Virus record (IMG/VR): IMGVR_UViG_3300011429_000004
Span: 331 to 64,330 of that record
DNA: 64,000 bases
DNA from: a virus
Strand: one strand, 5' to 3'
In this document: in pieces, positions 19,940 to 63,149 of the stretch
How the letters are laid out: every line of letters begins with the position of its first letter
How positions within the stretch are numbered: position 1 is the stretch's first letter
Translations under genes and position numbers: made by a program
The notes under the pieces: generated by a model
The model's database searches: none
Told to the model about the DNA's origin: nothing
Seen by the model: only the letters and a program-made list of their open reading frames with translations

Positions 19940-20230
19940 TGCGAACGTTCATAAACTGGCCCCTAGGGTGATTCCTGGGGGCCTCCTTTTTCTGGGGTGT
20001 CGTTGGGTAGCTACAACTCTAGGGCTCGCCACAGGCCAGCCTTGGGGCGCACAGACCCTCTTGCCAAGGGGGCGCCTCGATGGCACTATGTGGCTTCGCG
20101 CTTCTGGGGACGCTACCCCGCACCCCCTAGGGGCGCTGCCCCGGTGCTGTTTCGCCCCCCTAAGGTTACCAGCACCGGGGCAACCAACAACAAAACACTA
20201 CAAATACAACAAAACACTACAAATAAGGCA
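19940..20230 (+). other. GC-rich, highly structured non-coding leader followed by a tandem AC-rich 19-nt repeat, immediately upstream of the RNR start.
   Basis: About 65% GC in an AT-rich genome. Perfect 11-bp inverted repeat ccccggtgctg / cagcaccgggg, other GC hairpins and several CTAGG motifs. Tandem repeat acaaaacactacaaata x2 at 20191-20227. Confidence 0.4.
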
Positions 20231-20237
20231 TCAAACC

Positions 20238-22016
20238 ATGAATATAGCCGTACCTACGTCACAACTATATGTTGATGGCGCTGACTCTCCTTTAACGCCA
20301 TATGGACAAGAACTAAGATACTTCGATCAACTTCACCAAGAAAAATACCGAGATAGTAACCAACCTAAGGCACATCATACAGAGATTTTAGCCAATAATC
20401 TAGCTAGTGATAGTACTCATTATCTTAAAATATATGATGCTCTTAGGTTTAACAGATTTCTCCCAGCGGGAAGGGTCCAAGCAGCACTAGGAGCAACAGA
20501 ACGTGAAGTATCTCCCTTTAATTGCTCTGTATCTCAGCGCATTGAAGATAGTATGGATTCTATTATGGCGGCATTGGGCAATGCTGCAAAAATACTCCGT
20601 CTCGGTACAGGAATTGGATATAACTTTAGTAATCTCAGACCCCAAGGCGCCGAGATTAGGAAGCTTAAAACTCAATCATCCGGCCCACTCTCATTCATGA
20701 AAATCTTCGATGTAATGGCTTCCACCATTGCATCGTCTGGTCACAGACGCGGCGCACAAATGGGGATTATGAATGTATCGCACCCGGATATCGAAGCGTT
20801 TATTGATGCGAAAATGCAAAAAGACGCATATAGACAATTTAATCTCAGTGTCGGAATTACAGATGATTTTATGCAATGCGTTGAAGAAGATAGAGAATGG
20901 GCACTCAATTTCAACGGACAAGTCTATAGAACTATTAAAGCAAAAGAGCTTTGGGAGAAAATTACAAAAAATGCTTACAATAGTGCAGAACCAGGAATCC
21001 TCTTTATAGATAGATTTAATAAATCTAATAACTTATACTACTGCGAACAAATAGAGGCTACTAATCCCTGTGCTGAGCAACCCCTTCCTCCTTATGGATT
21101 ATGCACTCTTGGCAGCTTTAATCTTGTTGCTTATGTGTATAATAACGGAGAAGAGATAGGGTTTAACCATGAATGTTTTAAACATGACATTCATACAATG
21201 GTGGAAGCCTATGATAATATATTTGACGACGCCGTATATGCCATACCAGAGCACGAAGCAGAAGCTAAAAGTAAACGTAGAATTGGACTGGGGCTTACCG
21301 GGATCGCAAATGCCATCGAATATCTCAGTGGCAGACCTAACTACGGAGAAGATGATTTTTGTGACAAATTATCAAAAATTTGTGAGATGCTAAGAGATGA
21401 AACCTATCAAGCAAGCGTCAACTTGGCAAAGAGACGAGGACCTTTCAGGCTTTATTCAAGTGAATATACAAAAGGGAAATTTATCCAAACTTTGCCTGAT
21501 GCCTTGCAATCTGAAATTAACAAGCACGGTATACGTAATTCGCACCTTATCAGCTACGCACCTTGTGGTACAATATCCCAAACTGCCGGAAACATTTCTT
21601 CGGGCGTGGAACCAGTATTTCACTACGAACAGTCACGAGATGTGTATATGAAAGAGGGCAAGGTTAATGTCACGATTAAAGATTATAACTACCGAACTCA
21701 TGGATTTCTTGGGAAGACTCTTGAGCGGTGTAGTGTCAGTGACCATATGGCTGTTGCTAACGTTATTCAGCATTTTTGTGATAGTGCAGTGTCAAAGACT
21801 GTTAATGTAGCTAGTAATTGCTCCTACGAAGAGTACCAAGAAATATATAAAGAAGCGTATAGAATAGGTCTCAAGGGGATCACGGTCTACAGGCCAAATG
21901 ATTTAAGAGGGATAGTTATTAAAGCGGCTGACGTTAAAGAAGAAATTATAAAACAAGAGGGATGCTCATTTGAAAGCATCCCTACTAGCTGCGTAAACGG
22001 CGCTTGTTCACTCTAG
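20238..22016 (+). CDS. Ribonucleotide reductase catalytic subunit. It is probably a monomeric class II (B12-dependent) NrdJ-like enzyme, since no beta-subunit gene is adjacent.
   Basis: Motifs NPCAEQPLPPYGLCTLGSFNL (active-site NPC[GA]E and CxLGSxNL) and FLPAGR, plus a C-terminal Cys pair. The annotated ORF start at 19968 lies in the GC-rich leader; the real start is probably the ATG at 20238 (MNIAVPTS). Confidence 0.65.
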   Translation: MNIAVPTSQLYVDGADSPLTPYGQELRYFDQLHQEKYRDSNQPKAHHTEILANNLASDSTHYLKIYDALRFNRFLPAGRVQAALGATEREVSPFNCSVSQRIEDSMDSIMAALGNAAKILRLGTGIGYNFSNLRPQGAEIRKLKTQSSGPLSFMKIFDVMASTIASSGHRRGAQMGIMNVSHPDIEAFIDAKMQKDAYRQFNLSVGITDDFMQCVEEDREWALNFNGQVYRTIKAKELWEKITKNAYNSAEPGILFIDRFNKSNNLYYCEQIEATNPCAEQPLPPYGLCTLGSFNLVAYVYNNGEEIGFNHECFKHDIHTMVEAYDNIFDDAVYAIPEHEAEAKSKRRIGLGLTGIANAIEYLSGRPNYGEDDFCDKLSKICEMLRDETYQASVNLAKRRGPFRLYSSEYTKGKFIQTLPDALQSEINKHGIRNSHLISYAPCGTISQTAGNISSGVEPVFHYEQSRDVYMKEGKVNVTIKDYNYRTHGFLGKTLERCSVSDHMAVANVIQHFCDSAVSKTVNVASNCSYEEYQEIYKEAYRIGLKGITVYRPNDLRGIVIKAADVKEEIIKQEGCSFESIPTSCVNGACSL

Positions 22017-22520: not shown

Positions 22521-22806
22521 TTTTTTTCCCTTTCCAGCTTGTCTAGTCGTTTTTCTGTCTTTCGATGCTCAGTAGCACTAATAAGACAGTATACCCCTAT
22601 AATCATTAGTATTACATCTCTCCATTCCATTTTACACCACCTGCAAGAGAAGCCTAGGAAGTTCCGCTTTAGTGTAAACTAAACTTGTCCTAGGTCATTT
22701 TGATCGCGTCCTTAATACTTATTTCTTGTCGTCTTGCTGGGGATTGATACTTACAAAGCCCTTAAGCCTTACGACTTGCGATCTTACGTTTGGCTCCATT
22801 TCATTG

Positions 22807-22879
22807 GAGCCGCTAATAGGAATCGAACCTATCACACCCTGATTACAAGTCAGGTGCTCTACCAACTGAGCTATAGCGG
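22807..22879 (-). tRNA. tRNA-Thr (anticodon TGT).
   Basis: The reverse complement folds as a cloverleaf: acceptor GCCGCTA/TAGCGGC, D-arm GCTCAGTTGGTAGAGC, anticodon loop CTTGTAA, T-arm ATAGGTTCGATTCCTAT. The ORF at 22719-22916 is its translation artefact. Confidence 0.8.
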
Positions 22880-23059
22880 CGGTTAAGTGGTATGTGTTGC
22901 ATGTAGTACCGAGCAACGGGCGGTTTACACTTCTGCGGTTTTGTATCTTCTTACATTGGCCAGTACTCTCTATACTACGGGAGAATTTTGGTCAATGGTT
23001 AACAACCTCGATCACGAAAACGTGATTGACTTTTGCCTCTCTCTATGCTATAGAGGCAC

Positions 23060-25763: not shown

Positions 25764-25839
25764 AGCCGCTTAGCTCAATTGGCAGAGCATCTGATTTTGA
25801 GTCAGAGGGTTATAGGTTCAAATCCTATAGCGGTTGCCA
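25764..25839 (+). tRNA. tRNA-Gln (anticodon TTG), with encoded CCA.
   Basis: AGCCGCTTAGCTCAATTGGCAGAGCATCTGATTTTGAGTCAGAGGGTTATAGGTTCAAATCCTATAGCGGTTGCCA. Acceptor and anticodon stems pair. Confidence 0.75.
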
Positions 25840-25956: not shown

Positions 25957-27789
25957 ATGCACGATAAAATAGAAAAGTTCTTTAAGATACTTACCCAAAT
26001 TAAAGAACCAGCCTATGACGTAGAAACTAACGGCCTCGACTGGAAAAGGTGCTACATCTGTGGTTATTCTGTTTCCGACGGTAGTGAAAGTGTATATATC
26101 CCCGTTCGTCATAGTTCTGGCAATATTGACCTGGTTAATGATTTTGAGCATGAGCTTGCTCAGTCTATTAAAGCTCATACTGGCCGTATTATTGGGCACC
26201 ACATTAAATTTGACGCGCATTTTAGCGAAAACCATGGCGCTATTCTCGGAAACAAAGTAGAAGATACTATGGTTCAAGAAGCTCTTTTAGATGAGCATCA
26301 AAGAAGCTATTCTCTAGAAAACATATGTAAAAAATATGACATCGTTCCAAAATTAGGAAAGAGATTATATGAGCATATATCTCAACAAGTTGGATGCAAG
26401 CCAGATCGTAATGCTATGGCTCACTTTCATACCCTTGCTGGTAACGATCCCCTTGCCGTCGAATATGCAGAAGGAGATACACTTACTACTAAGCAATTAC
26501 ATACAGCACAAAAGAAAAAACTCTATGCTCAACAACTTGATACAGTGGTTAACCTCGAAAACGAACTTATTTACGTTCTCCAAAAAATGGAGCGTAGAGG
26601 CATAAGAGTAGACCTCGAAGAGGCAGAAAGAGTTAAAATACAAGTAGAAGAACTCTACGATGAAGCCTACTCTAAACTTATAGTGGCTACAGACGACGAC
26701 TTTGGATACGAATTTATAAACGTAAGGTCAGCCAAAGACCTCAAACAGTACTTTGAAATGTGCGATATAGACGACTGGCCTATGACTGCGCCTACTCAGA
26801 CGCATCCTGATGGACAGCCTAGCTTTAATAAAGACTTTCTTGCTACTACGCAAGAGGGTCTTAACATTATGAATGTCAGAAAATATTCTCACCTTAAATC
26901 TTCTTTTTTAGACCCTTTAGATAGGTTCATATATAAAGGTAAGATACACACTACCTTTAACCAAACGATAGGGGAAACCCATGGAACTAGGTCTGGCCGT
27001 CTTTCTTCTAGTCATCCTAATCAGCAGCAAGTTCCTAAAAGAGATAAGCAACTTGGTTCGATTTATCGTAGGATGTTTGTGCCTAGTGATAATTATTTTC
27101 TCATTGAATATGATTATTCTCAAGCTGAACCAAGATTATATTCTCACTACTCTGATGAGCCGGCGCTCTTAAAAGGGTATAATAGTACACCGTTTATAGA
27201 TATGCACACTATAGCGGCTGAGTACATGAACGTATCTAGAGACATAGCCAAGAACTTAAACCTAGGCATAATGTACACAATGGGGCCAAAGAAACTAGCA
27301 ATCAAACTAGGGATATCGTATGACCAAGCAAAAGCTATTCTTGATAGATGGATGCAAACTTTTCCAAGAGTCTCCAACTACGACAGAAACAATCCTGGGT
27401 TTACCCAAAAAGCACAAAAAGTCGCGCAAGACAGAGGATACGTCAAAACTATACTTGGTCGCAGGGCTCGCTTTCCTGATCCTGATTTTGCATACAGGGC
27501 TGCTAACCGAATTATACAAGGTTCTAGTGCTGATGTACTTAAGTATAAAATGGTAGAAATCGATAGATATCTAGTAAACAATAAATTAGAGGACGTGTGT
27601 AGAATGCTTCTTACTATTCATGATAGTCTTGTATTTGAAATACATAATGATCGTAAAGACTTAATTAACGTAATTAGAGACATAATGGAAAGGGTGCAAG
27701 TACCTCCTTTTAATCTTAAAGTACCTATGCCTGTAGACTTCAAATCAGGTGACAATTGGAGCACAGCGACCTATGGCACTGTTTCTTGA
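25957..27789 (+). CDS. DNA polymerase I family A (T7-like), with a 3'-5' exonuclease domain.
   Basis: Exo motifs DVETNGL, HHIKFDAHF, YAEGD. Pol motifs RLSSSHPNQQQVP, DYSQAEPRL (A), RDIAKNLNLGIMY (B), IHDSLVFE (C). Confidence 0.85.
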   Translation: MHDKIEKFFKILTQIKEPAYDVETNGLDWKRCYICGYSVSDGSESVYIPVRHSSGNIDLVNDFEHELAQSIKAHTGRIIGHHIKFDAHFSENHGAILGNKVEDTMVQEALLDEHQRSYSLENICKKYDIVPKLGKRLYEHISQQVGCKPDRNAMAHFHTLAGNDPLAVEYAEGDTLTTKQLHTAQKKKLYAQQLDTVVNLENELIYVLQKMERRGIRVDLEEAERVKIQVEELYDEAYSKLIVATDDDFGYEFINVRSAKDLKQYFEMCDIDDWPMTAPTQTHPDGQPSFNKDFLATTQEGLNIMNVRKYSHLKSSFLDPLDRFIYKGKIHTTFNQTIGETHGTRSGRLSSSHPNQQQVPKRDKQLGSIYRRMFVPSDNYFLIEYDYSQAEPRLYSHYSDEPALLKGYNSTPFIDMHTIAAEYMNVSRDIAKNLNLGIMYTMGPKKLAIKLGISYDQAKAILDRWMQTFPRVSNYDRNNPGFTQKAQKVAQDRGYVKTILGRRARFPDPDFAYRAANRIIQGSSADVLKYKMVEIDRYLVNNKLEDVCRMLLTIHDSLVFEIHNDRKDLINVIRDIMERVQVPPFNLKVPMPVDFKSGDNWSTATYGTVS

Positions 27790-28801: not shown

Positions 28802-29257
28802 TTGAACATCGAAGAAGAACTAGATGGATTTAAACTATGCTTGAAGTGTCTTGAAGTCAAGGATATAGATGAATTTGGTAAAAATAGATATAAAAAAGAC
28901 GGTAAGCATGTGTATTGTAAATCATGTGTGCTTATTATAGACAAAAACAAAAGAACAATAAATCCAGATAGGCATAGAAAGTACAATAAAAAGCATAGAG
29001 AAAAGTACCCAGAAAAAGAAAGAGCAAGACACATATTTCGTAAGTACAAATTGACTAAAGAACAATATGAGAACCTGCTGAAACAGCAAAATAATTGTTG
29101 TGGAATATGCAGTAAACAATTTAGGAGCACTCCTAACGTAGATCATAACCACATTACAGGTAAAGTTCGTGGACTACTTTGTAATTATTGTAACAGTATG
29201 TTGGGATGGTACGAACTAAACGATGAAAGGAAAATTCAGGCGTGGACTATGAAATAA
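28802..29257 (+). CDS. Endonuclease VII-family (T4 gp49-like) Holliday-junction resolvase / HNH-like nuclease, copy 1.
   Basis: CCGICSKQF...VDHNHITGKVRGLLCNYCNSMLG Endonuclease_7 signature. TTG start in the ORF track. Confidence 0.55.
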   Translation: MNIEEELDGFKLCLKCLEVKDIDEFGKNRYKKDGKHVYCKSCVLIIDKNKRTINPDRHRKYNKKHREKYPEKERARHIFRKYKLTKEQYENLLKQQNNCCGICSKQFRSTPNVDHNHITGKVRGLLCNYCNSMLGWYELNDERKIQAWTMK

Positions 29258-30765
29258 AAACACACGATGGCCAAACTAAAAAATGGCCATTTGATAATAA
29301 GATACCAAGAGAAGTTCAATTAGCGGCTTTATCCAAATCGTGGGGTAAAGGAGGTTTTGCGTTTTTCATGAGACAAAGATTAGGCAAGACTTGGACAGCC
29401 TTTGCTGAGTTCTCTATGCTCCGTGCAGAAGGTAAAGTAGATTGGTTCGTAGTCATATGCCCTAACTCAATCAAAGAACAATGGAAACAAGACATAGAAG
29501 AAGTGGATGAATTTATACCTGTATGTGTATACGAGAGCGGCAATAAGAAGAAATCATACTATTATTTAGAACATAACAAGAACGGCGGTGTGTTCATTAT
29601 TAACTATGAAAGCGTTAAAACTTTCATGGAGGATGGGGGTTCACAGTTCCTTAACCATTCTAGGACATATATAGTTGCTGACGAAAGCACTAAGATCAAA
29701 GAACCCAACGCCAAAATGACAAAGGCTTGCCATGCTCTCGCGACTTTTTGCGCCTATAAACGTGTACTTACTGGTAAACCTACCGCCAATAGTAATGCAG
29801 ATTTATGGGCTCAACTTAAATTTATCGCGGCTACAAGCCGCAATTTTTATCAGCATAAACGTTATTACTGCGTTATGGGTGGCTTTCAAGGAAGAACAAT
29901 TACACGTAACATCAATACGGACTACTTACAAAAAGAGATGTACCCTTACTCCTATATCGCAGAGGATAAATACATCAAGGGTTTTGAAAAGATATATGAG
30001 CCGCTGCGAAGAGTTACACTCACTGAGGATCAGCAAAAACTATACACTCAAATGGAGAATGAATTAATAACGGAGCTGCAAGATGGCACCGAGATTACTG
30101 CGCCTATTATACTCGTTAAGTATTTACGGCTGCAGCAAATTAGCTCTGGTATTGCTGGTGATCCTAGTGGTGTGCAACATAATACTATTGATCCCAGCCG
30201 TAATCCTAGGATTCGCGTACTACGAGACATACTCGACAATGAGATTGACCACAAAGTTATCATTCCCTGTCGTTTTCGCCTTAGCATTGATAACTTGGAA
30301 TATACTCTTAGAAAAGATGGCTATAAGACTGCTCGCTTGGTGGGTGGGATGGGAACAGAAATAGAAACCGAGAAAGAAAGGTTTAATAAAGGTGACGCAA
30401 CAATCCTCCTCGCACAACTCCAAGTCCTATCTTATGGGCATACGCTCTGTGGTCCTGATGATAACCCTTGTGATAGTATTATATATTATGAAAACGACTT
30501 TTCTCTACTTAATCGAATGCAGTCGGAAAGTCGTCCCGAAAAATATCAAAGAGAAGTTCCGATAAGTATATACGACCTCTATGCATCCGATATGGACAAA
30601 TATATTATACAAGCTCTTGTTAAGAAAGAAGACGCCTCTATGGCATTAATGAATTATTCACGAAAATATGGTATGAGACCAGAGCTAAGCAAGGTTCCGC
30701 TAGAGCAAAGGAGCAAGGGCAATGACGACAGACAACAAGCGTACACAGACCTATTTGACAATTAA
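29242..30765 (+). CDS. Superfamily-2 (SNF2/DEAD-like) DNA helicase.
   Basis: Motif I RQRLGKTWTA, motif II IVADESTKI. 507 aa. Confidence 0.5.
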   Translation: MDYEIKTHDGQTKKWPFDNKIPREVQLAALSKSWGKGGFAFFMRQRLGKTWTAFAEFSMLRAEGKVDWFVVICPNSIKEQWKQDIEEVDEFIPVCVYESGNKKKSYYYLEHNKNGGVFIINYESVKTFMEDGGSQFLNHSRTYIVADESTKIKEPNAKMTKACHALATFCAYKRVLTGKPTANSNADLWAQLKFIAATSRNFYQHKRYYCVMGGFQGRTITRNINTDYLQKEMYPYSYIAEDKYIKGFEKIYEPLRRVTLTEDQQKLYTQMENELITELQDGTEITAPIILVKYLRLQQISSGIAGDPSGVQHNTIDPSRNPRIRVLRDILDNEIDHKVIIPCRFRLSIDNLEYTLRKDGYKTARLVGGMGTEIETEKERFNKGDATILLAQLQVLSYGHTLCGPDDNPCDSIIYYENDFSLLNRMQSESRPEKYQREVPISIYDLYASDMDKYIIQALVKKEDASMALMNYSRKYGMRPELSKVPLEQRSKGNDDRQQAYTDLFDN

Positions 30766-49074: not shown

Positions 49075-49911
49075 TTATGCCTCCACCTGCACGTTGCCAT
49101 GTTTCTTTAACATAGTTTTAACCCATGCGATTGGGTCTCGCAGCATTAGTTCATCGCCACCATGACCGCCTTCAATTAAGATATCGTTAACATCACAACC
49201 ACAAATGTCCCGACGATTGCGACAGAAGGGAATAGACGACATTCGCCTATAGTCTGCTTGAGCGTGCACCGTGGTAAACATCAGGCGCCGACAGTACGCG
49301 GGGTTAGTGAGCATGTACACGGCTCGCCCTAGGTCTAAGGGGTGACTGTCAAGCTTCACTATGGCGCCGTACACGCGCGAATTATAGGCCGGATCACCAA
49401 AACTGCAAGCGTAAAGCTCGACAGGGCGCTGCATCCCCAAGGCCATAACTAAGGCCAAGCACGCTACGCCACGATTAATTAACTCCGCGTGCGATAGCGA
49501 AGCGGAGACAGTTGTCTCTATGAACACCTTAAGAGGCGTAGTCTCTACTTGATTTTCTGAGTGTGATCGCACCAACATATCCTCGGGATGCCCCATAAGA
49601 ACAGCTGGAACGTTAGGCACATACCCTTGAATAGATGAAACAATGATAGGTTGCCCTTGAGTAAATACGTGGGCGTCACGCATCTTGTCTATGATTTTTT
49701 CGGCTTGCTCCAAGCCTTTAGTGTCACCATTAATAAGCCTAGACACTGCGGAATTAAAATCCCCACCACTAAATGAGTTGTCTTGCCAGCCTTCACAAGC
49801 GCTAACCATATCCCTAGGAATAGTCTCAAGCCATTGAGCATATGCAGCTGGGTTTTCAAACCTCATTGCATAGTCGTCTTCTATTGGTGACTGTCTTGGG
49901 ATACTAGGCAT
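49075..49911 (-). CDS. Hypothetical protein, a probable partner of the downstream AAA_5 ATPase.
   Basis: 278 aa, moderately GC-rich. Immediately downstream of the ATPase gene on the same strand. Confidence 0.35.
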   Translation of the reverse strand: MPSIPRQSPIEDDYAMRFENPAAYAQWLETIPRDMVSACEGWQDNSFSGGDFNSAVSRLINGDTKGLEQAEKIIDKMRDAHVFTQGQPIIVSSIQGYVPNVPAVLMGHPEDMLVRSHSENQVETTPLKVFIETTVSASLSHAELINRGVACLALVMALGMQRPVELYACSFGDPAYNSRVYGAIVKLDSHPLDLGRAVYMLTNPAYCRRLMFTTVHAQADYRRMSSIPFCRNRRDICGCDVNDILIEGGHGGDELMLRDPIAWVKTMLKKHGNVQVEA

Positions 49912-49954
49912 TTTATGTTCTCCGCTCTAAGCCTGTAGGCTCAACCGCGCATGG

Positions 49955-51718
49955 TTACTTTATCATATTCCATTGCGCATCGCTAAGACCCTGCTTTAGT
50001 GTGGCGTGCTCAACTAGTTCTTGAGATACACCAGCCGCTAAAAGCGCTTCACCATAGATCGACGCCCTAGGAGTGATAGTATAGCCTTGAATAGATGAAT
50101 TTCCGGTTTCTAGCTTACGGCGAACCTGCCTAACTCTAGCAAGCCAAGTCTTGTTGGCACACAGCGCATCCTCTAGAGCCTCGTCTAATGGCCAATGCAG
50201 GAACACAAAACGATTGGTCAAGGCAAAATCTTGCTTGAACCGACCAACGTATTGCACGGTGCCACCCATGCCACAAGTGTTAGCACCGGCTACAATGATG
50301 CACTGATGATGCCTGGGGACCATCTTATCGGGGAATGAGGCTAGGCCGTTAGCTAATGCACCATTTAGCGCAAGCAAAGCATCAGGCATAGAGCCGTCAA
50401 TCTCATCGAACATATAGACGCCACCATGCTCCCATGCTTCCCTAAATGCAGTAGACATAAATTGCCCATTGGCGTTTATGAAGCCTTGCAGCTGGAACGC
50501 TGTTGCGATAGCGCCATTGTAACGGTATTTGTGTTGGCCGGGAAAGAACACCTCGGCAAGCTTCTCTGCGGCTGTAGTCTTGCCCGTACCGGCTGGACCG
50601 TGCAACCATATGTTGCAATGTGCACCTGATCTAAGCTTGGCGCTGGCGAATTGAACCAATGCAGGAAAGCAACGATGCTGCACGCCCATGTTGAGCGGCG
50701 GCAGGTCTACGCGCTTTAGTTCGATGATTGTTGGCGCTTTTAACTGTATTTTAGCTGTTTCCTCATCGATATATTTGCGTAGCGCGCTTCCAACGTTTTC
50801 TACAACTTTAATTAGTTGTTCACCGTTGACATAGTTCTTAGATTGCAACAAAGCATGAGTAACAAACTGTGAAATGTCAAGTTGCATCTTAATGTCGGGC
50901 TGGCCATTAGGCTTAGGTGTCTCAGTTGTACCATTGTTATATTCTACTTTAGTGTCGTCGGGGAGTTCCGGCAGCATATCATCAAATATCTTGGACTCGT
51001 CTTGCCCCAATACTTTATCCTTGTTGCGCGCGCCTTGCGGACGGCCAACTTTATAGCGCGACCGCGCCATATTGTGTGCTTGGTTTAGATCGTTCTCAAG
51101 GAAATACTTTTGCAGATAGGCTGCGAGCGCACCAGCGTTATACTTAAAACGCTCATCAATGTCGAAACGGGAATAGTAAGGCGTGTTTTGGACCTCCCAC
51201 AGACATTGCAGCATCATGCGAAGATGCTTGTAGTTTTGCCCGTATTGCTTGCGAACGTATTCCGAGCCGGTCATTTTATCCCCCGTTGTATCGTCTCGCT
51301 CCGCGCCTGGACGCGACCGCTCGACTGGTGTTGTGCTCTTATTATAGGGCGGGGAGTATTTATAATCAACTAAAGATTGTTTAGTTGTGTTATTTAGTTG
51401 CTCAATCTTAGGTTGCAAAGGTAAAGGTAAAAAGTATAGTTGATTTTTTATGAATTTATCTAAAGCCGCATTAAATTTTTTGAGTTCATTTTCTGTTGTT
51501 AGTTGTGTATAAATCTCTTGGGCTAAGATAGGATTCTTATTTTGTGTTATTATATCATCTTTAATTAATGGTTGCTCGCTCGGTGGCGCAGGACCATTGT
51601 ATATAGTATCTCTTTGGTTTGTTGATTGTGGTGGCGACGCAAATCGTGTGCGATACTCGCAGCAAAACGCGCAATCGCAGTCTGATCTGTAATCAGATGG
51701 GCCGTCATAGGTTGACAT
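49955..51718 (-). CDS. AAA+ ATPase of the AAA_5 (MoxR/CbbQ/McrB-like) type with a long N-terminal extension bearing a Cys cluster.
   Basis: Walker A HGPAGTGKTT, Walker B VYMFDEIDG, then ALLALNGAL. N-terminal CDCAFCCEY. Codon composition shifts within the gene. Confidence 0.55.
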   Translation of the reverse strand: MSTYDGPSDYRSDCDCAFCCEYRTRFASPPQSTNQRDTIYNGPAPPSEQPLIKDDIITQNKNPILAQEIYTQLTTENELKKFNAALDKFIKNQLYFLPLPLQPKIEQLNNTTKQSLVDYKYSPPYNKSTTPVERSRPGAERDDTTGDKMTGSEYVRKQYGQNYKHLRMMLQCLWEVQNTPYYSRFDIDERFKYNAGALAAYLQKYFLENDLNQAHNMARSRYKVGRPQGARNKDKVLGQDESKIFDDMLPELPDDTKVEYNNGTTETPKPNGQPDIKMQLDISQFVTHALLQSKNYVNGEQLIKVVENVGSALRKYIDEETAKIQLKAPTIIELKRVDLPPLNMGVQHRCFPALVQFASAKLRSGAHCNIWLHGPAGTGKTTAAEKLAEVFFPGQHKYRYNGAIATAFQLQGFINANGQFMSTAFREAWEHGGVYMFDEIDGSMPDALLALNGALANGLASFPDKMVPRHHQCIIVAGANTCGMGGTVQYVGRFKQDFALTNRFVFLHWPLDEALEDALCANKTWLARVRQVRRKLETGNSSIQGYTITPRASIYGEALLAAGVSQELVEHATLKQGLSDAQWNMIK

Positions 51719-52867: not shown

Positions 52868-53209
52868 CTAGGCTGTTTCAGTGAATAGTGTCTCACACTC
52901 ATCTTGAGAAATGGTAAATTCGGTTTTGTGTTTTTCAAACCAAGATTGCAGCTCAATCGCGCTGCCAAACAAGGATACATCAGCTGCCCAGCGGTCCACA
53001 CATTGGCGGCAGTCGATCTTGCCTGCTACGATTTGGTCGACTAATAGTTTGACAAAATCAGGACCATATGCGTTAATCATACCATGTAGATCATACTCTA
53101 CTGCGAATAGGCGCACAAGATAGCCTTGGGCTTTGGATATTTTGGAGGGGTTTTTACGACGGGATGCCATGGGAGTTCTCCTTGGTTGTATAGAAGAAGA
53201 TACACCCAA
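52868..53209 (-). CDS. Hypothetical protein.
   Basis: 113 aa ORF. Confidence 0.3.
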   Translation of the reverse strand: MGVSSSIQPRRTPMASRRKNPSKISKAQGYLVRLFAVEYDLHGMINAYGPDFVKLLVDQIVAGKIDCRQCVDRWAADVSLFGSAIELQSWFEKHKTEFTISQDECETLFTETA

Positions 53210-53220
53210 TTAGTTAAATA

Positions 53221-53463
53221 TCACTTAACGCGCCAACACATTTTGTGTTTAACAGATATTTCAAAGCGCTTGAAATTATGCTCTGGGTTTTCCCATTCTT
53301 TGTGCCTAAATACGTTGCGCATTTTTTGACAGCGATGTACGTCAGTAATGTCTGTAAGTTCAAAACTAGAGCCAATTGGCATTGTATAGAACTCCTGCCA
53401 ATCAGATAAGTCTAGCCTAGGCTTTTTTGGTGGGATAGGTATATTTGTTAGAAGCTTTCTCAT
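53221..53463 (-). CDS. Hypothetical protein. First gene of the leftward operon leaving the regulatory hub.
   Basis: 80 aa ORF. Confidence 0.25.
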   Translation of the reverse strand: MRKLLTNIPIPPKKPRLDLSDWQEFYTMPIGSSFELTDITDVHRCQKMRNVFRHKEWENPEHNFKRFEISVKHKMCWRVK

Positions 53464-53499
53464 ATGATGTATCCTTGTAGTTGCGCGACTGATCCGTGT

Positions 53500-54500
53500 A
53501 CGTCATGCCGGATATGCCAGATAGAACGGTCTAATCTCTCTTTGTATGGGGAAGAAAGATGTATATAGTATTAACATTCTTATACATTGATATAGTAGTC
53601 TATCTGGCATATCCGACAGGATACCTCGAAACGCCATATATAGAGCCATCTACAGCAATTGTCAATTGAACAGCTATCGAACGGCTATCGGTCGGATAAG
53701 CGGCAGGACGTGTACAGAGTTTCCCGTGGAGCGTGTAATTGTATATATACAACCACAAGGCGAGTTACCTGTAGGATAGCCCGATTTTCATGGTACATAT
53801 CTGGCGGATAGATAATGAATGGAAACAGCGTTCAATTGCAAATCCATGTATTAATACTCTCTTAATGCATATACAACCTATAGCAACTCATTACTTATTG
53901 CTTTTCCATTAATACTCATGTCAAGTAAAATAATTGTGATCTCGCAACTGCTAACAATTCGCATAATATCTGTTATGTAAAATATCAGCGATAACGAAGA
54001 TGTGATAGTGATGTTCTGGGTATGTTCTATTAATACAGGTATATACAACTCTTATGTTCCCGCTTTGTTGTAATATATTATTAACTCAACTAGGTTATAC
54101 TGATTTCAGGATCGAGAAACGGAGAAATACAATGCTCGCGCATCTTTACGGCAAACCCGGCAAGTGGTATCTTGACGTAACAGATATGGAGGGGCGCACA
54201 ATCATATTGATTGATGTGAAGAACAAGAGAGAAGCGCGCAAGATTTGTAAGGTATATAATTACAAAGAATGGAATTTCTAAGAGCAGCAAACTGGTGAGC
54301 AATCACCAGTATTGCACCATTTAGTTGTATATACAACTTGGTGGACTGCAGCTATGCGGAGCACGCATAGGTTAAGATTGTATTACGATGTAGATGCAAC
54401 TCGGGCAACATATATATTTATTTTCGTGTGGAAATTAACGTTTTAGAAAAGAAGGTATGGTACTATACCCCCCCTGGACCCCCCCAGCCAGAAACACGGT
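53500..54500. promoter_or_regulatory. About 1 kb AT-rich regulatory hub. It has four copies of a TATATACAAC motif, a 16-17-bp inverted repeat pair (ccggatatgccagatag / ctatctggcatatccg) and two C7 homopolymer tracts.
   Basis: Motif copies at ~53741, 53870, 54038, 54320. Inverted repeat at 53508-53524 and 53600-53616. C7 tracts at 54466-54487. Divergent transcription units on either side. Confidence 0.45.
54132..54281 (+). CDS. Small hypothetical protein inside the regulatory hub.
   Basis: Internal ATG (MLAHLYGKPGKWY) of the tracked ORF 54054-54281. Confidence 0.2.
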   Translation: MLAHLYGKPGKWYLDVTDMEGRTIILIDVKNKREARKICKVYNYKEWNF

Positions 54501-54886
54501 CTAAAATCACATTTCCACATTGCGAGAAAATTTCTCAAGTTCTCTCCATCCTGTCCAACTTAACTTAGCTAAACTTATCTTATGAAACTTAACTCCACTA
54601 TTTATTATTTGGTCATATTTATATAAAGCTTTCCAACCATTTAAATAATTTCTAGTATATATTCTATACATAGGAACATTATTAAGAGTAGCGTTGCTAT
54701 GAGTATCATCATATATAACTATAATCTTATACATCTTTTTTCTTCACCTCCGCTATATTCCACCCCTTCTTCATACAATACTGTACCACTTTCTCAATCT
54801 TCCATTTATCCCTTGCCATATAGTACACAATGGGGGCAGCTGTAGTAACTACCCCATTTACAGTCTCTATGCCTGAAGTAAAGTAA

Positions 54887-55225
54887 TTACTCTTTATTTG
54901 GTATAGCTTCACTAACATTCTTTATCTCTATATTATTCACAAAACTAATACCAACCGTCTCTAAGACTCTTTTACTTACTTCATCTGCCCTTGGATCAGG
55001 GTTCTCTGTAAGTATATTTCCAAACGCTGCACCAATACCAATAGTTAAATAATCAAACTCACTAAGAGCCAACATAGTTAACATCTCTAATTTCTTAGAG
55101 CGAACACCTTTGTTGGTTTTCTTAAACTCTTCGTGAAGTTTTCCTACATCTACTTCAAAGGTAAATAATTTCTTTGTCATTTGATGCGCTCCTTGCGATA
55201 AAAATTCGTGCTTGACTTGTATCAT
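54887..55225 (-). CDS. Hypothetical protein.
   Basis: 112 aa ORF. Confidence 0.3.
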   Translation of the reverse strand: MIQVKHEFLSQGAHQMTKKLFTFEVDVGKLHEEFKKTNKGVRSKKLEMLTMLALSEFDYLTIGIGAAFGNILTENPDPRADEVSKRVLETVGISFVNNIEIKNVSEAIPNKE

Positions 55226-55296
55226 ACCTCTATCCGAAAGTCAACCCTGAAAGGAGGCGGCGGTTTAAGAGTAAACAGGTTCTTGCCCTTGTCCCG

Positions 55297-55842
55297 TTGG
55301 CTCCCCCGCCTTCTTTCACTTTACGACTGGTTGTGCTTACAAGCACAGAAGGAGTAGATAAAATTAAAAGGTATAGAATAAATAAAAGAAGATTAAAGGT
55401 TGCAGAGAGAACTCGCCTCGCTAGGGATGTTCTCTATGATGGTATGGTTAATTTTGAAACCCGCGCTAAGCAATGCCTAGCAGTAATGATAGATAGTATT
55501 AAAGGGCAACAAAAATCTAACTACGCTGAGCTTAAACTACTTTATCAAGAGTTTCGTAAATGTCAAGAGCTAGCTGCTGACTATGCACATAAGCTAGCAC
55601 CATATCAATCTCCAAAACTTGAGTCTATAGAAGTAAAATCTCAAGTTGAGCATAGATATGTAATGCGTGTGCCACATCAAATGAAATCCACCGACGAATG
55701 GACTAAAGCAACAGGGGCCTCTAAAGTGTCTCTAGAAGAGATGACTAAGCATAGCAAGAATAATATGACTAAAGTAACTAAAGATGTAGTTGAAGCAGAG
55801 TACGAAGAAGATAATTATGTTGAGCCCGGAATGGTGCATTAG
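55297..55842 (+). CDS. Hypothetical protein at the head of the packaging module. Small-terminase/DNA-binding role is possible by position only.
   Basis: 181 aa, K/R-rich N-terminus. Confidence 0.25.
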   Translation: MAPPPSFTLRLVVLTSTEGVDKIKRYRINKRRLKVAERTRLARDVLYDGMVNFETRAKQCLAVMIDSIKGQQKSNYAELKLLYQEFRKCQELAADYAHKLAPYQSPKLESIEVKSQVEHRYVMRVPHQMKSTDEWTKATGASKVSLEEMTKHSKNNMTKVTKDVVEAEYEEDNYVEPGMVH

Positions 55843-57464: not shown

Positions 57465-57722
57465 GTGCGCACCGAATCGGAAAGAGATAAAATGATAGAG
57501 TCAATCGTAATGGCAATGATTAGCTTGTGCCTTCTGGTACTGGCTATCTATATCGTTCTTTGGGTGCTTTCACAATTAGGTATAGTTATTCCTGAAAACG
57601 TAATGAAGATTGTTTGGGTCATAGTGGTTTTAGTTGCTATTCTTATTTTAGTGAGAACCGTGCTTCCTGGGATGGGGGTTAGGATTGGTCTACTAGAAGG
57701 AGCGGTTAAACTGTTGACCTAA
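57465..57722 (+). CDS. Small membrane protein (two TM helices).
   Basis: MAMISLCLLVLAIYIVLWVL and IVWVIVVLVAILILV. Confidence 0.3.
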   Translation: MRTESERDKMIESIVMAMISLCLLVLAIYIVLWVLSQLGIVIPENVMKIVWVIVVLVAILILVRTVLPGMGVRIGLLEGAVKLLT

Positions 57723-59344
57723 TGAGCGCCAGACAAACTAAAATAAACTACACAACTGTTTGGAAACCAAACGACGGGCCTCAAAGCTGGCTTATAACTT
57801 GTCCAGTCTTTGAGACTCTATTTGGAGGCGCGCGTGGTGGTGGAAAAAGCGACGGTGTCCTTGGCGAATGGGCAAGTCATGCCGATCTTTATGGGGAGAA
57901 CGCTATTGGGTTATGTGTACGCAGAGAACGTACACAACTTGTTGAGCTTGTTGAAAGATCAAAAGTACTTTATTTCCCGCTCGGAGCAAAGTTCAACGAA
58001 CAAGACAAAGTCTGGCGGTTTCCTAATGGAGCAAGATTAAGGTTTGCATACCTTGAGAGCGACAATGACGCGATGGCTTATCAAGGGCACAGTTATACTA
58101 GAGTTTATGTGGAAGAGATGGGGACGTTCCCCAATCCTGAGCCCATTTTTAAGCTTATGGCTACTCTTGGCAGGAATCCTGCTGTTCCAAGCAGGTTTAT
58201 CGCTACTGCAAATCCCGGCGGTCCTGGTCATAGTTGGATTAAAAATCGTTATATTGACCCTGATCCTCTCGGAATGAAGATTCTCCCCACGCTCTTTGAG
58301 AATCCTTTTACCAATGAAAAAATCTACAAAGAAAGAATTTTCATTCCATCTAAAGTTACTGATAATCCTTATACTAATACAGCTCAGTATATCGGGAATC
58401 TTTATTTATCTGGTAATGCGGAACTCGTAAAAGCATGGTTGATGGGCGATTGGAATGTAATGCTCGGGGCATTCTTTCCAGAATGGGATACACGAAAACA
58501 TGTCATTAAAACATTCCAGATACCGAAACAATGGACAAGATTTATGTCTATTGATTGGGGAACAGCGACTCCATTCTCTATTGGGTGGTGGGCAGTGGTC
58601 CCTGACGAATTTGATGCCGGCCTTGAGGTTAGACCGGATCAGTGGCAATTCTACAAAGGGCAGTCTGAAGAGACTAAGATCACTACGCTTCCTAAAGGTG
58701 CTATTATTCGATACAGGGAATGGTATGGTTCCAGAAATGCTGAAGCTCAAAGTGTTTCTACGACCGAAAACATGAACATAGGTCTTAAACTCACTGCTGA
58801 AGAAGTAGCAGAGGGTATTTGTCTACGTGAAGCCCAAGAGCCAAGAAACCATTTCGAGCAAGCAAGAATAGCCTACCGAGTAGCTGATCCTAAGATGTTT
58901 GCTATGGAAAGCGGACCCTCTATAGCCGAGAGAATGGGTAATCCTCCCTATAGAATTAATCTAATGAAAGCCGACAATAAGAGAGCTGCTACAGCTGGTA
59001 CAATAGGCGGTTGGGATATGCTTAGAGCCCGATTAAAGGGAGACGGTATAACACCTATGATGTTCTTCATGGATAATTGTATCCATGCTATAAGAACATT
59101 ACCCATAGTACAGCACAATGAGAACCACTTAGAAGATGTTCTTAAAGAAGGGGAAGACCACGCACCGGATGAAATAAGGTACGCTTGTATGTCTAGGCCA
59201 TATTCTTCTACAACACATGTAGAGCGCATTAGAACTCTTCTTAGAAAGAAGGATAGTGGATTTAGAGACGGAAATATAGTTCTTCACGATGAGTTAGATA
59301 CATTAAAGAAAACTACAAGATTTAATAATGCCCGCATCAACTAA
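57722..59344 (+). CDS. Terminase large subunit.
   Basis: Walker A GGARGGGKSDG and ATPase-coupling motifs. C-terminal nuclease-like region. 540 aa. Confidence 0.75.
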   Translation: MSARQTKINYTTVWKPNDGPQSWLITCPVFETLFGGARGGGKSDGVLGEWASHADLYGENAIGLCVRRERTQLVELVERSKVLYFPLGAKFNEQDKVWRFPNGARLRFAYLESDNDAMAYQGHSYTRVYVEEMGTFPNPEPIFKLMATLGRNPAVPSRFIATANPGGPGHSWIKNRYIDPDPLGMKILPTLFENPFTNEKIYKERIFIPSKVTDNPYTNTAQYIGNLYLSGNAELVKAWLMGDWNVMLGAFFPEWDTRKHVIKTFQIPKQWTRFMSIDWGTATPFSIGWWAVVPDEFDAGLEVRPDQWQFYKGQSEETKITTLPKGAIIRYREWYGSRNAEAQSVSTTENMNIGLKLTAEEVAEGICLREAQEPRNHFEQARIAYRVADPKMFAMESGPSIAERMGNPPYRINLMKADNKRAATAGTIGGWDMLRARLKGDGITPMMFFMDNCIHAIRTLPIVQHNENHLEDVLKEGEDHAPDEIRYACMSRPYSSTTHVERIRTLLRKKDSGFRDGNIVLHDELDTLKKTTRFNNARIN

Positions 59345-60584: not shown

Positions 60585-63149
60585 ATGGCCCGTAAACAAG
60601 CTTTAAATATATCAAACATAGATGCTTCTAATCATCCTGACGACGGAGGTGTACTATCTCCGGGTCCAGGAAGAGAAAGTTTTAAACTCGCGGCTTTTTG
60701 GAAGTCACAAGTAGAGTCTATAGACCAAGCCTATGCTAAATGGACTAAAAGGGGTAATGCTGTACTTAAGAGGTTCCGAGACGAGCGTAACCGCGTAGAT
60801 GAAGAAGGTCAGAGACGTATGAACCTTCTTTGGTCTAACTACAAAGTAATGAAACCTGCTATCTACTCTAAGTGCCCTACACCTGTAGTAGATAGAAAAT
60901 TCTTAGATAGAGACCCCACGGGTAGATTATCTTCAACTATGCTGGAGCGTGCCACAAAGAATGAATTAAATAATGGTTTTCATAGAGCTGTATCTAGGGC
61001 AGTAGACGATAGGTTACTCCCAGGCAGAGGAGTAATTTGGATAAGGTATGAGCCTCAGTTCGGCGAAGGAGACTCTATACCTGCCCCTACTATTAATCCT
61101 CTTGAAGACGCACTCCATAAAATAGAAGAGGAAGTAGGCAGGGAAGGAGAAACCTCAGAAAAAGAAGAGAAATTAGAAGACACAAACGAAATAGTGATTG
61201 CAGAGAAAGTAATTACAGACTATGTAGATTGGAAAGATTTTTATGTATTTCCTGCCAAAGCAAGAACTTGGACTGAAGTACAAGCCATAGGTAAAAAAGT
61301 ACATATATCTAAGCAAGAAGCTAAAGAACGCTTTGGAGATAAGATCGGCGGCGCAATGAAGCCCGATACTACTCCAATGGGCTCTACTTCCGAGAGGTTA
61401 GTATACTCCGAGACAGCTATATTCCAAGATATAAATGAGAGGGCTATAGTTGTATATGAAATATGGAACAAGAGCGATCTTAAAGTATACTGGGTTTCTC
61501 CTGGGTATCAGTATTTAGCAGATGTAAAAGATGACCCTCTTGAGTTAGAGCAGTTCTTCCCTGTTCCTGAGCCTCTTTTCTCTACAATGACTAATGATAC
61601 TTTAATCCCTGTGCCTGATTTTATGGAATGGCAGGATCAAGCTATTCAAATAGACGAACTTACTTCAAGAATAGCTATGCTCACCAAAGCCTGCAAGATA
61701 GCAGGCGCTTATAACTCTGCTAATGTCGCACTTGGAAGAATATTAGACGAAAGCGTAGAGAATCAGCTTATACCTGTGGATCAATGGGCAGCATTTGCTG
61801 AAAAAGGCGGCGTGAAGGGAGCAATTGATCTATTACCATTAGACGAAATACAAAAATGTATAGAGACATTAACGAATGTTCGCCAACAGGCTATGATCGA
61901 CCTCGATCAAGTCACAGGTCTTAGTGATATTGTTAGAGGTACTAGTGACAGTAGAGAGACACTTGGCGGTATAAGACTTAAAAATAACAATGCGGGAACC
62001 AGACTTAGTGATAGCCAAGAAGAAGTCGCTAGGTTTGCTAGAGATGGGATAGGTATAATTGCTGAGATTATTAGTAAGCATTTTAGTGATGAAACCCTTA
62101 TTCAGTCTTCGGGAATACTCTACGAAGAAGAGCTACAGCCTGATAACGTATTAAGAGAATTACAGGCATCTACTGACCCCGTGTCATCACAAATGCCAGG
62201 ACAGCAAAAAGAATCAGCACCACAAGCAGGCCCACCACAGCCCCAACTACCTGCACCGGCTCCGCAACAAGCGCCATCGCCTTCTCCTATGCCCGGTCAA
62301 CCCGACAACAATATCGTACCCTTCCCCGGTATGCAACAGCCTAACATGGGAATGCCTTCTATTCCGTTAACGCCACCGCCACCTGATCCTCAAGTAATTA
62401 TTTTTCAAAAAATACAAAAAGCTATATCTCTATTAAGAGAAGACATAAATAGAGGCTATCGTATAGATATAGAAACAGATAGCACTATTTTTGGAGATAA
62501 AGTACAAGAACGCGAAGATGCAACTGAGTTTATTACTGCTCTTGGCGGTACTCTTAAACAATTTCAAGGCATAGCCGCAGAGATGCCTGAAGTAATGCCT
62601 CTTCTAGGGCGTATATTACAATGGGGAGTGCGTAAATACCGTACAGGTAGAGATTTAGAGTCGGAAATAGACGCATTTGTTGTAAAAATGGATAAAAAGT
62701 CCAAACAAATGATAGAGAATCCGCCTCCTAATCCGGAACAACAGAAGGCCGAGGCGGAAATAGAGCAAATTAAGCTAGAAGGTCAAATACAGCAAACAAA
62801 CGATCAAAGAGAATCAGAGCGCCAAGCTCAAAACGATCAAAGAGACTATCAATTACAAGCTGCCGACGATCAGCGCAAGATGCAAATGGCAAAAATGGAG
62901 GATGACCGTAAGGCGCAGATGTCTCAATTAGAGCAACAACATAAAGAAAAACAAATGGCTATGGACATGGAATTTAAGATAAAAGAGCATCAATTAAAGA
63001 TGCAGCAACTTGAGCGAGAAGCTACTCATGCCTCACAAGCTCACACTCATAAAATGGCTGAACTTAAGGTAACAGCTGAAGAAAACGAAAAGAAGAGAGC
63101 AGAGGCTAAGAGAAAAGCTTCTACCACAGTAAAGAAGAAAGCAAGCTAA
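60585..63149 (+). CDS. Portal protein candidate with a long Gln/Glu-rich coiled-coil C-terminal extension.
   Basis: 854 aa, positioned after the terminase and before the scaffold-like acidic gene. C-terminal ~150 aa Q/E/K-rich helix (P22-barrel-like). Confidence 0.45.
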   Translation: MARKQALNISNIDASNHPDDGGVLSPGPGRESFKLAAFWKSQVESIDQAYAKWTKRGNAVLKRFRDERNRVDEEGQRRMNLLWSNYKVMKPAIYSKCPTPVVDRKFLDRDPTGRLSSTMLERATKNELNNGFHRAVSRAVDDRLLPGRGVIWIRYEPQFGEGDSIPAPTINPLEDALHKIEEEVGREGETSEKEEKLEDTNEIVIAEKVITDYVDWKDFYVFPAKARTWTEVQAIGKKVHISKQEAKERFGDKIGGAMKPDTTPMGSTSERLVYSETAIFQDINERAIVVYEIWNKSDLKVYWVSPGYQYLADVKDDPLELEQFFPVPEPLFSTMTNDTLIPVPDFMEWQDQAIQIDELTSRIAMLTKACKIAGAYNSANVALGRILDESVENQLIPVDQWAAFAEKGGVKGAIDLLPLDEIQKCIETLTNVRQQAMIDLDQVTGLSDIVRGTSDSRETLGGIRLKNNNAGTRLSDSQEEVARFARDGIGIIAEIISKHFSDETLIQSSGILYEEELQPDNVLRELQASTDPVSSQMPGQQKESAPQAGPPQPQLPAPAPQQAPSPSPMPGQPDNNIVPFPGMQQPNMGMPSIPLTPPPPDPQVIIFQKIQKAISLLREDINRGYRIDIETDSTIFGDKVQEREDATEFITALGGTLKQFQGIAAEMPEVMPLLGRILQWGVRKYRTGRDLESEIDAFVVKMDKKSKQMIENPPPNPEQQKAEAEIEQIKLEGQIQQTNDQRESERQAQNDQRDYQLQAADDQRKMQMAKMEDDRKAQMSQLEQQHKEKQMAMDMEFKIKEHQLKMQQLEREATHASQAHTHKMAELKVTAEENEKKRAEAKRKASTTVKKKAS

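Follow-up and report, generated by a model that had tools for sequence, protein, structure and literature searches.

Layout of the hub and its dif-like core

The DNA considered here, hereafter the window, comprises 64,000 nucleotides of IMG/VR virus record IMGVR_UViG_3300011429_000004 (positions 331 to 64,330) and covers nearly all of this 64,330-bp phage contig. Its gene-poor hub at about 53500-54490 holds, from left to right, an inverted repeat, two copies of a short motif, a 28-mer with both arms of a bacterial dif site, the recombination site of XerC and XerD, two further motif copies and a homopolymeric C tract. In our greedy set of open reading frames (ORFs), the hub is the largest gene-poor stretch of the window, in agreement with the first-pass annotation, which had described it as the largest non-coding stretch. 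The same annotation had placed the hub between divergent transcription units, but leftward genes flank it on both sides (from 53463 leftwards and from 55225 to 54507), and the true point of divergence is 55226-55296.

The dif-like 28-mer AATTCGCATAA|TATCTG|TTATGTAAAAT (53956..53983, plus strand), which is absent from the first-pass annotation, has the 11-6-11 architecture of dif, with XerC arm, 6-bp centre and XerD arm and the inner inverted ATAA/TTAT, and matches once in the window as compared with 0.04 expected matches. It is the best-conserved element of the hub in all relatives of the phage: the string TCGCATAATATnnnTTATGnAAA, which was traced to dif by a full-text literature search, is the sole block identical in all four aligned relatives, the hubs of which are otherwise unalignable. 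The XerC arm AATTCGCATAA is identical to the arm of Bordetella pertussis dif (AATTCGCATAATGTATATTATGTAAAGT) and the XerD arm TTATGTAAAAT to the arm of Methylobacillus flagellatus dif (ACTTCGCATAATGTATATTATGTAAAAT; PMC2731167), with the centre alone differing from these sites of Betaproteobacteria. The arms point to a betaproteobacterial-type dif, and the 28-mer is a putative binding and cleavage site for XerC/XerD of the host.

Around this core, the fourfold motif reported previously is borne out, with four hub copies of TATATACAAC or a variant within 53744-54337. Exact TATATACAAC sites are at 53744, 54040 and 54328 on the plus strand and at 54324 on the minus strand, while ATATACAAC is at 53869; the exact 10-mer occurs six times in the window compared to 0.29 expected occurrences, a number reached by none of 100 shuffles. 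Copy A (TTGTATATATACAACC, 53739..53754, plus strand), a 14-bp palindrome TTGTATATATACAA plus two extra central bases, starts 217 nt upstream of CGCATAA of the core, copy B (TGCATATACAACCT, 53866..53879, plus strand) is located 93 nt upstream of the dif-like core, copy C (GGTATATACAACTC, 54038..54051, plus strand) 79 nt downstream of CGCATAA, and copy D (AGTTGTATATACAACT, 54323..54338, no strand assigned) is a perfect 16-bp palindrome, which gives motif starts of -217, -93, +79 and +367 with respect to CGCATAA and spacings of 125, 171 and 288 bp. A degenerate copy TGTAGATGCAAC (54389..54400, plus strand) has ATGCAACTCG in common with the relative L041 at the equivalent place (L numbers are our labels for retrieved contigs and loci), and GTCAAGTAAAATAATTGTGAT (53920..53940, plus strand) is the counterpart of the GTCAAATCACAnTAAnnTGTGAT inverted-repeat element that trails many motif copies in relatives. 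The CAATTG-rich repeats described earlier are present as well (53651-53671 and 53830-53850, 76%). Directly upstream of copy B, TTAATACTCTCTTAA (53851-53865) follows the CtrA-box pattern TTAA-N7-TTAA, of which the window contains five, and probably reflects chance in AT-rich DNA.

Related phages were found by TerL-based and pattern-based searches of viral and metagenomic collections. The clade members retrieved are L004/L030, L037/L260, L041/L269, L256, L259, L275, L279 and L281, with L278 as a 99.9%-identical fragment, and TerL of the window is 74-78% identical to TerL of the relatives. Alignment of hub DNA between relatives fails except for short motifs; the same layout is found in at least nine related metagenomic phages, with the dif-like core, same-orientation aGTTGTATATACAACtc copies on both sides and a (GAC5-8)n tract on the XerD side. 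The earlier view of a functional non-coding hub of protein-binding repeats is borne out, with the motif, C tracts and layout retained by these diverged relatives, while its readings as promoter and origin are less supported, as discussed below. The core is present in the window, L004, L037, L041, L256, L259, L275, L279 and L281, where the centres all begin with TAT (TATTAG, TATGGA, TATCTG, TATAGG, TATAGA, TATATA) and the XerD arms vary as host dif sites do (TTATGACAAAT, TTATGGAAAGT, TTATGGAAAAT).

Each hub of a relative contains 6-12 copies of GTATAT(A/G)CAAC(TC) in a single orientation, spaced by 13-273 bp, and the 49 motif copies found with up to one mismatch in seven clade members have the same polarity to the core on both sides of it. 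The logo built from 48 copies reads aGtTGTATATACAACtc, a 16-bp palindrome with the right half far more strictly kept than the left, so that the site is directional. Motif starts recur at about -52 (L004, L256, L259 and L037), about +53 to +63 and about +110 with respect to CGCATAA, with starts at -46 in L041 and -43 in L275, and degenerate copies abut the XerC arm in L041 and L275 and, in L275, also the XerD arm. Motif and core are arranged like a recombinase core with its accessory or arm-type sites and unlike a set of promoters, since most copies lack a downstream ORF and no full copy is located upstream of a gene elsewhere. In the more distant clade member L279, which encodes an H-NS-like protein, two inverted dif-like sites (3336-3363 and 3707-3734) lie about 370 bp apart in the hub, and recombination between them would invert the segment.

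At the far end of the hub, the twin C7 tracts noted before are indeed present as C7-TGGA-C7 (54468-54485), the sole G/C runs of at least 7 in 64 kb, within GGTATGGTACTATA-C7-TGGA-C7-AGCC (54454..54489, plus strand). The counterpart in relatives, GGTAGAC5..C7..AGAC7-8(T)AGCC, is always on the XerD side with the G-run strand reading towards the dif-like site, and in full-length hubs of relatives this GGTAGAC5..C7..AGAC7-8 tract at the far end is followed by small leftward genes. Four independent contigs stop at the (GA)C6-7 run beside a dif-like site, L256, L259 and L118 exactly within the run and L085 about 10 nt further on, and the window, L004, L037, L041 and L278 read through the tract; such contig ends can be true DNA termini or places where assembly broke off at a homopolymer of variable length. 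The tract may mark a terminus or a break in assembly, or act as a polar signal of FtsK type or for priming. A role as terminator of the leftward small genes was rejected, as its folding does not surpass that of shuffled sequences (z = 0.16) and relatives do not conserve the hairpin, and the contig ends of L001-L003 were rejected as evidence for a terminus, as the upstream gene content is simply different.

At the opposite end, the inverted repeat CTATCTGGCATATCCG has two arms that match perfectly along 16 nt and lie 75 nt apart, as had been reported (left arm 53509..53524, minus strand; right arm 53600..53615, plus strand), and extends to 23 nt with 91% complementarity. The 75-nt spacer is AT-rich and situated just upstream of the first leftward gene. 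A suggested third half-site (~53797-53813) has only TATCTGGC in common with the repeat and is not found with up to three mismatches. The repeats beside the first leftward gene differ by lineage, with ATGACACATCG in L004 and L256, a GTGACA-type repeat in L041, TGACGC/TGACA in L037 and CTATCTGGCATATCCG in the window, and the gene itself (53221..53463, minus strand, 80 amino acids (aa), no family match) has no detectable counterpart in L004. Repeats of its own in each lineage beside a first gene without counterpart in L004 are what one would expect of a regulator specific to the lineage together with its operator. The interpretation of the inverted-repeat pair as a candidate operator, as previously suggested, is plausible, and this lineage-specific repeat, next to the first gene of the leftward block, probably acts as operator for the early operon.

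Dif-like sites in other phages

In IMG/VR, the dif pattern was found in at least 118 contigs, a count inflated by related contigs, compared to 14 for a reversed control of the same composition. Among the matches listed, the contigs have unrelated flanks and belong to diverse tailed phages, with TerL of at least two families, a podovirus-type adaptor, head and tail proteins and O-like replication initiators. As the 28-mer is the most conserved block of the hub and recurs to this extent beyond the control, the resemblance to dif is not due to chance. The 5' end of TerL faces the dif-like site in 60 of 60 TerL genes of about 58 loci among the matches listed, usually at a distance of 0.14-2.5 kb, with a few genes at 8-11 kb.

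G/C runs of at least 6 within 200 bp of the phage sites amount to 1.95 per kb versus 0.12 per kb elsewhere in the same loci, a 16-fold enrichment, and such runs are found near the site in 54 of 105 distinct loci among the matches listed. The G runs are polar, with 61 towards the site and 23 away from it within 200 bp and 85 versus 30 within 800 bp. This enrichment makes C7-TGGA-C7 of the window part of a general module of dif-like site plus G/C run.

Matches to phage isolates in GenBank include microviruses, small Acinetobacter phage records, small non-tailed phages and the strictly lytic Vequintavirinae. The sites of rV5 (GGTGCGCATAA|TAGGTA|TTATGTTAAAT) and of the Erwinia phage Hena1 (GGTGCGCATAA|GGTGTA|TTATGTTAAAT) equal E. 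coli dif (GGTGCGCATAATGTATATTATGTTAAAT, centre TGTATA; PMC2731167) in both arms and differ from it in the centre. The Hena1 site is inside the annotated 519-bp direct terminal repeat (1-519 and 148324-148842) and the dif-like site of Gotham inside the annotated terminal repeat 1-459, and the records of Hena1, Gotham, EdH4, YN3 and ECP2309 have two matching places each. About 120 rV5-like records carry the segment which, where the genome was deposited from its physical ends, is found about 150-215 nt from the end, in the terminal repeat. The 2.6-kb non-coding hub of rV5 (DQ832317.1 102644-107665; locus L246 1050-3650) contains about a dozen GTAAACAG/GTGAACAG repeats, the dif-like site, a GC hairpin and a C-rich tract with an FtsK-orienting polar sequence (KOPS) on the strand reading towards the site, an architecture that parallels the one of the window; one KOPS of rV5 is oriented towards the site and one away from it.

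Dif-like sites are known on inoviruses, double jelly-roll (DJR) phages and microviruses, and the biology of integrative mobile elements exploiting Xer (IMEX) is established (PMC12715192). In the literature searched, which is incomplete and gives absence of evidence only, dif/Xer sites in tailed or virulent phages or in their terminal repeats were not found.

Source genome and neighbouring genes

The source contig appears to be circularly assembled, and the window has no terminal overlap. GenBank phages contain no near-identical DNA; the nearest isolates reach 28-45% identity only, in TerL, portal or polymerase. Pfam and PHROG scans covered the great majority of the window ORFs, leaving out a few small ones, with many of the scanned ORFs lacking a family match; no match to an integrase or recombinase, ParAB, a repressor, a sigma factor or an RNA polymerase was obtained. 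By its gene content, with PolA (25957-27789), a helicase (29242-30765), a Toprim primase with a DUF5906/VapE-type helicase (17047-19618) and, listed among the replication genes, the ribonucleotide reductase RNR (19968-22016), and with no match to repressor or partition genes, the phage is apparently a new, tailed and lytic one.

Leftwards of the hub, a long, early block of genes extends from 53463 down to about 35.5 kb. Its second gene (52868..53209, minus strand) encodes a protein of 113 aa with 44-52% identity in L004, L037 and L041, which is a tentative candidate for the binder of the invariant motif. Inside the hub, between motif copies C and D, a small ORF of 49 aa (54132-54281, plus strand) with a GGAG ribosome binding site and a gene call in the near-identical contig L278 is followed at its 3' end by a terminator-like hairpin CTGGTGA-GCAA-TCACCAG (54292-54309); with no counterpart in the hubs of relatives that were read, it is probably a lineage-specific insertion. 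On the other side, three small leftward ORFs of 75, 63 and 112 aa (54507..55225, minus strand) end at the C tract and have neither a family match nor a homologue in the relatives searched.

The rightward packaging and structural block, which includes TerL (57722-59344), the portal (60585-63149) and the major head protein (793-1824), starts with a clade-conserved gene for a protein of 181 aa (55297..55842, plus strand) with an invariant KLAPYxSPKLESIEVK motif across the clade. This product, a candidate DNA-binding protein or terminase small subunit, has no sequence match in Pfam, PHROG or PDB and no Foldseek hit on a poor AlphaFold model (pLDDT 65). The three tRNA genes of the window (Thr-TGT 22805-22880, Leu-TAA 25183-25267 and Gln-TTG 25764-25839) are all outside the hub, and an Rfam scan of 52.5-55.5 kb with E up to 1 gave two sub-threshold snoRNA matches only.

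The closest TerL relatives retrieved from GTDB (L165-L244, 80 loci; 42-56% identity) are mostly from Alphaproteobacteria, many from Caulobacteraceae and Hyphomicrobiales, in large chromosomal contigs where they apparently represent prophages or elements resembling gene transfer agents. None of these 80 loci has a dif-like site within 10 kb of the TerL relative. These TerL relatives are mostly alphaproteobacterial, whereas the dif-like arms of the window look betaproteobacterial.

Two gene groups of the long leftward block may be mentioned in addition. Between 36753 and 44544 (minus strand), Pfam matches to Polysacc_synt_2, DegT aminotransferase, NeuB, CTP_transf_3 cytidylyltransferase, a HisF-like protein and epimerases are typical of a predicted pathway for a nonulosonic acid of the pseudaminic or legionaminic type, which could serve DNA or virion modification or the remodelling of the host surface. 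At 49075-51718 (minus strand), a CobS-like AAA ATPase (587 aa, phrog_249 'porphyrin biosynthesis') adjoins a DUF7192 protein, a pair that recalls the cobalt-chelatase-like genes of marine 'cobaviruses'.

Metagenome matches that have been retrieved with the motif are unrelated to the hub (L270, L268, L247 and L255), and a T7-type or CRISPR-related motif was rejected. L270 (1750-4760) and L268 (reverse strand, 2050-2900) contain arrays of a 33-36-nt repeat GTTGTAAGAGACCTTTTTGAAAGGTATATACAAC, which ends in TATATACAAC, with spacers of about 20-35 nt; the arrays adjoin TnpB/IS605-type 'transposase' genes (phrog_506) and a recurring structured element, and have the appearance of CRISPR-like arrays or arrays associated with omega RNA. 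The match in L247 is to a tandem array of 45 bp and the one in L255 to a coding repeat.

Readings of the hub and comparison with known systems

With a probability of about one half, we consider the hub (~53500-54490) a conserved region for recombination and control, namely an Xer module with accessory repeats and an early-operon operator beside it. Core and layout suggest that the phage uses XerC and XerD of its host, which would bind and cleave the 28-mer, while the same-orientation aGTTGTATATACAACtc copies would be accessory sites for a clade-conserved protein that assembles a nucleoprotein complex around the core, in the manner of the accessory sequences of cer and psi or the arm sites of lambda attP. 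The likeliest reaction would be recombination between two copies of the phage site, which would circularise an incoming, terminally repeated genome or convert multimers to monomers; with two direct copies in a terminal repeat, XerCD would excise one repeat and circularise the injected genome. The phage-private centre would allow exchange from phage to phage and disfavour exchange with dif of the host, and, as at cer and psi, Xer would be freed from its need for FtsK by an accessory complex that the flanking repeats provide. A less likely variant is that the phage integrates at dif of the host as IMEX do.

Several points weigh against this interpretation. Xer action on the 28-mer is deduced from its sequence, and the accessory role of the motif from position and polarity alone; the same repeats could be iterons or terminase-binding sites which merely share the intergenic space. 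Chromosomal dif recombination normally requires FtsK at the septum, and a route independent of FtsK would need accessory factors. For the clade of the window, the location in a terminal repeat is proposed by analogy with rV5 and Hena1 only. The TerL relatives in GTDB (up to 56% identity) yielded no prophage of the clade, and the number of IMG/VR contigs with the pattern includes related ones. Roles of the repeats and the C tract in origin function and packaging could, on the other hand, coexist with an Xer module.

Among the alternatives, a replication origin, in which GTATATACAAC iterons would be bound by the primase-helicase or another initiator, the AT-rich trough would unwind and the dif-like site would resolve circles or be incidental, is unlikely. 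It would fit the repeats, which are direct and of one orientation with at least three per hub (four in the window, 6-12 in relatives), the GC content of 29-33% over 53800-54100, the Toprim primase with DUF5906/VapE-type helicase encoded by the phage, the cumulative GC-skew minimum at about 50-56 kb and the GTAAACAG-type repeat array of rV5 beside its dif-like site, and P4-type primase-helicases are able to bind irregularly spaced short origin repeats. However, the spacing is irregular and varies between relatives with no helical phasing, 53464-54506 contains no DnaA or integration host factor (IHF) boxes, the adjacent genes have no family match and include no initiator, the replication genes are 24-37 kb off, and the AT-rich trough is largely the dif-like site itself with its surroundings. 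The cumulative GC skew, which had been recommended as a check for the origin, follows gene orientation and is therefore uninformative. The iteron origin considered in the first-pass annotation keeps its direct copies and AT-rich trough, but not a regular spacing, initiator boxes or an adjacent initiator gene, and the recurring distances of copies on both sides of the 28-mer are left unexplained by it.

Quite unlikely is a packaging-recognition region, where the repeats would be sites of the terminase small subunit in a pac- or cosB-like array and the C tracts would mark or adjoin the cleavage site or terminus. The position of the hub upstream of the packaging operon with TerL at 57722, of the dif-like site always 5' of TerL in other phages among the matches listed, and of the equivalent region in rV5-like phages in the terminal repeat is consistent with packaging, as are the three contigs that end exactly in the C run with L085 ending about 10 nt later, and an invariant motif would suit a conserved binder with TerL 74-78% identical in relatives. 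Yet no family, PDB or fold match supports the 181-aa candidate for the terminase small subunit, the window, L004, L037, L041 and L278 read straight through the tract, homopolymer contig ends can be assembly breaks, and the dif-like core is left unexplained.

Just as improbable is an attP of an integrase-less temperate phage, the IMEX case, in which XerCD would integrate the circular genome at host dif and the flanking repeats would bind a phage factor activating or directing Xer. Both dif arms are present, the window ORFs scanned give no integrase match, and the centres, which all begin with TAT as in many dif sites, would permit XerC-side homology; inoviruses, DJR phages and microviruses are established examples of IMEX (PMC12715192). 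Against it stand the virulent-looking gene content described above, the fact that no integrated relative was found in the 80 GTDB loci, and the sites in terminal repeats of the strictly lytic rV5 and Hena1, which indicate that a non-lysogenic function exists.

Transcription control only, with GTTGTATATACAAC copies as operators or phage-specific promoters and a functionless resemblance to dif, is very unlikely, as the partial dyad symmetry of the motif (copy D is a perfect 16-bp palindrome), TTGACA 7 nt upstream of several copies in relatives, the inverted-repeat operator beside the early operon and the window-wide enrichment of loose TGTATATACAAC matches (with up to two mismatches 35 versus 8.4 expected, mostly within genes and probably a compositional or codon effect) are opposed by full copies outside the hub only at 32756, 48307 and 61449, all inside ORFs of our own set and none upstream of a gene, which speaks against the promoter consensus proposed earlier, by hub copies mostly without a downstream ORF, by a geometry unlike sigma-70 (7-nt spacing; 7 sigma-70-like sites versus 9.4 expected, with terminators likewise not enriched), by the lack of RNA polymerase and sigma factor matches in the scans, and by the 28-mer as the most conserved block that recurs in unrelated phage contigs.

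Extended beyond the clade, the Xer module leads to a more tentative proposal, for which the odds are clearly below even. Many tailed phages, even strictly lytic ones, may carry host-type dif arms with a private spacer at genome ends or the packaging start, often with G runs towards the site, so that XerCD of the host would recombine terminal copies and thereby circularise the genome or resolve multimers. XerCD would perhaps be loaded or activated via FtsK or a phage protein on flanking repeats such as GTATATACAAC, and the private spacer would prevent suicidal integration at the chromosomal dif.

Exploitation of Xer by filamentous phages such as CTXphi, by some non-tailed phages with double- or single-stranded DNA and by plasmids is textbook knowledge; if the general scheme is true, it would add a previously unrecognised and widespread exploitation of Xer by tailed phages. 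Tailed and lytic phages that use XerCD would circularise a linear genome once injected, without a recombinase of their own under the pressure of RecBCD, which is directly testable, as rV5 grows on E. coli K-12, for which xerC, xerD and ftsK mutants exist. The dif-like arms of phages would then provide a clue to the host from sequence only, here a betaproteobacterial-type dif, and Xer would be a host dependency factor relevant to phage therapy, where rV5-like phages are used in cocktails. For the window, the 'regulatory hub' is replaced by a concrete conserved architecture of core, accessory repeats and G/C tract.

With the chromosomal dif/XerCD-FtsK system, the window shares the 28-bp site of 11-6-11 structure, with arms identical to published betaproteobacterial dif arms, and the G-rich runs of phage sites tend towards the site as KOPS do towards dif. 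In contrast to chromosomal dif, the site is carried by a phage and not by the terminus of a chromosome, it has a phage-private centre (TATCTG) and is flanked by clade-specific repeats, and the G runs of phages are homopolymers (GGGGGGGTC) and not E. coli KOPS (GGGNAGGG), which are absent at the C tract of the window.

The attP sites of IMEX such as CTXphi, VGJphi and TLCphi, DJR vibriophages and gokushoviruses consist of the same kind of dif-like site, likewise without an integrase, which implies the use of XerCD of the host (PMC12715192). The window differs from these elements as a 64-kb tailed phage with lytic-type genes, no integrated copy found, no module of XafT or RstR type and many accessory repeats.

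Closer in layout are cer of ColE1 and psi of pSC101, which likewise combine a dif-like core with flanking accessory DNA. In these plasmid sites, PepA together with ArgR or ArcA binds accessory DNA of about 180 bp beside the XerC arm, which makes recombination FtsK-independent and intramolecular. The repeats of the window are, unlike those, found on both sides of the core, are clade-specific and do not resemble sites of ArgR, ArcA or PepA; the only ARG-box-like match in the hub overlaps motif copy B. Lambda attP is alike in its layout, with oriented protein-binding sites repeated to the left and right of the core; Xer recombinases are not known to have an arm-binding domain, so that, unlike in lambda, the binder of the arm sites must be a separate protein.

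The Vequintavirinae rV5, Gotham and Hena1 show host-type arms with a non-host centre, a long non-coding hub, arrays of short repeats (GTAAACAG in rV5) and C-rich tracts on the XerD side, although they belong to an unrelated family of myoviruses of about 137-149 kb with a different repeat motif and gammaproteobacterial arms. By analogy, the function proposed here is the same as for loxP-Cre of phage P1, where a site near the packaging start or terminal repeat circularises incoming DNA and which serves the cyclisation of terminally redundant DNA and dimer resolution; in the phage of the window, in contrast to P1, the recombinase would be the one of the host and not of the phage.

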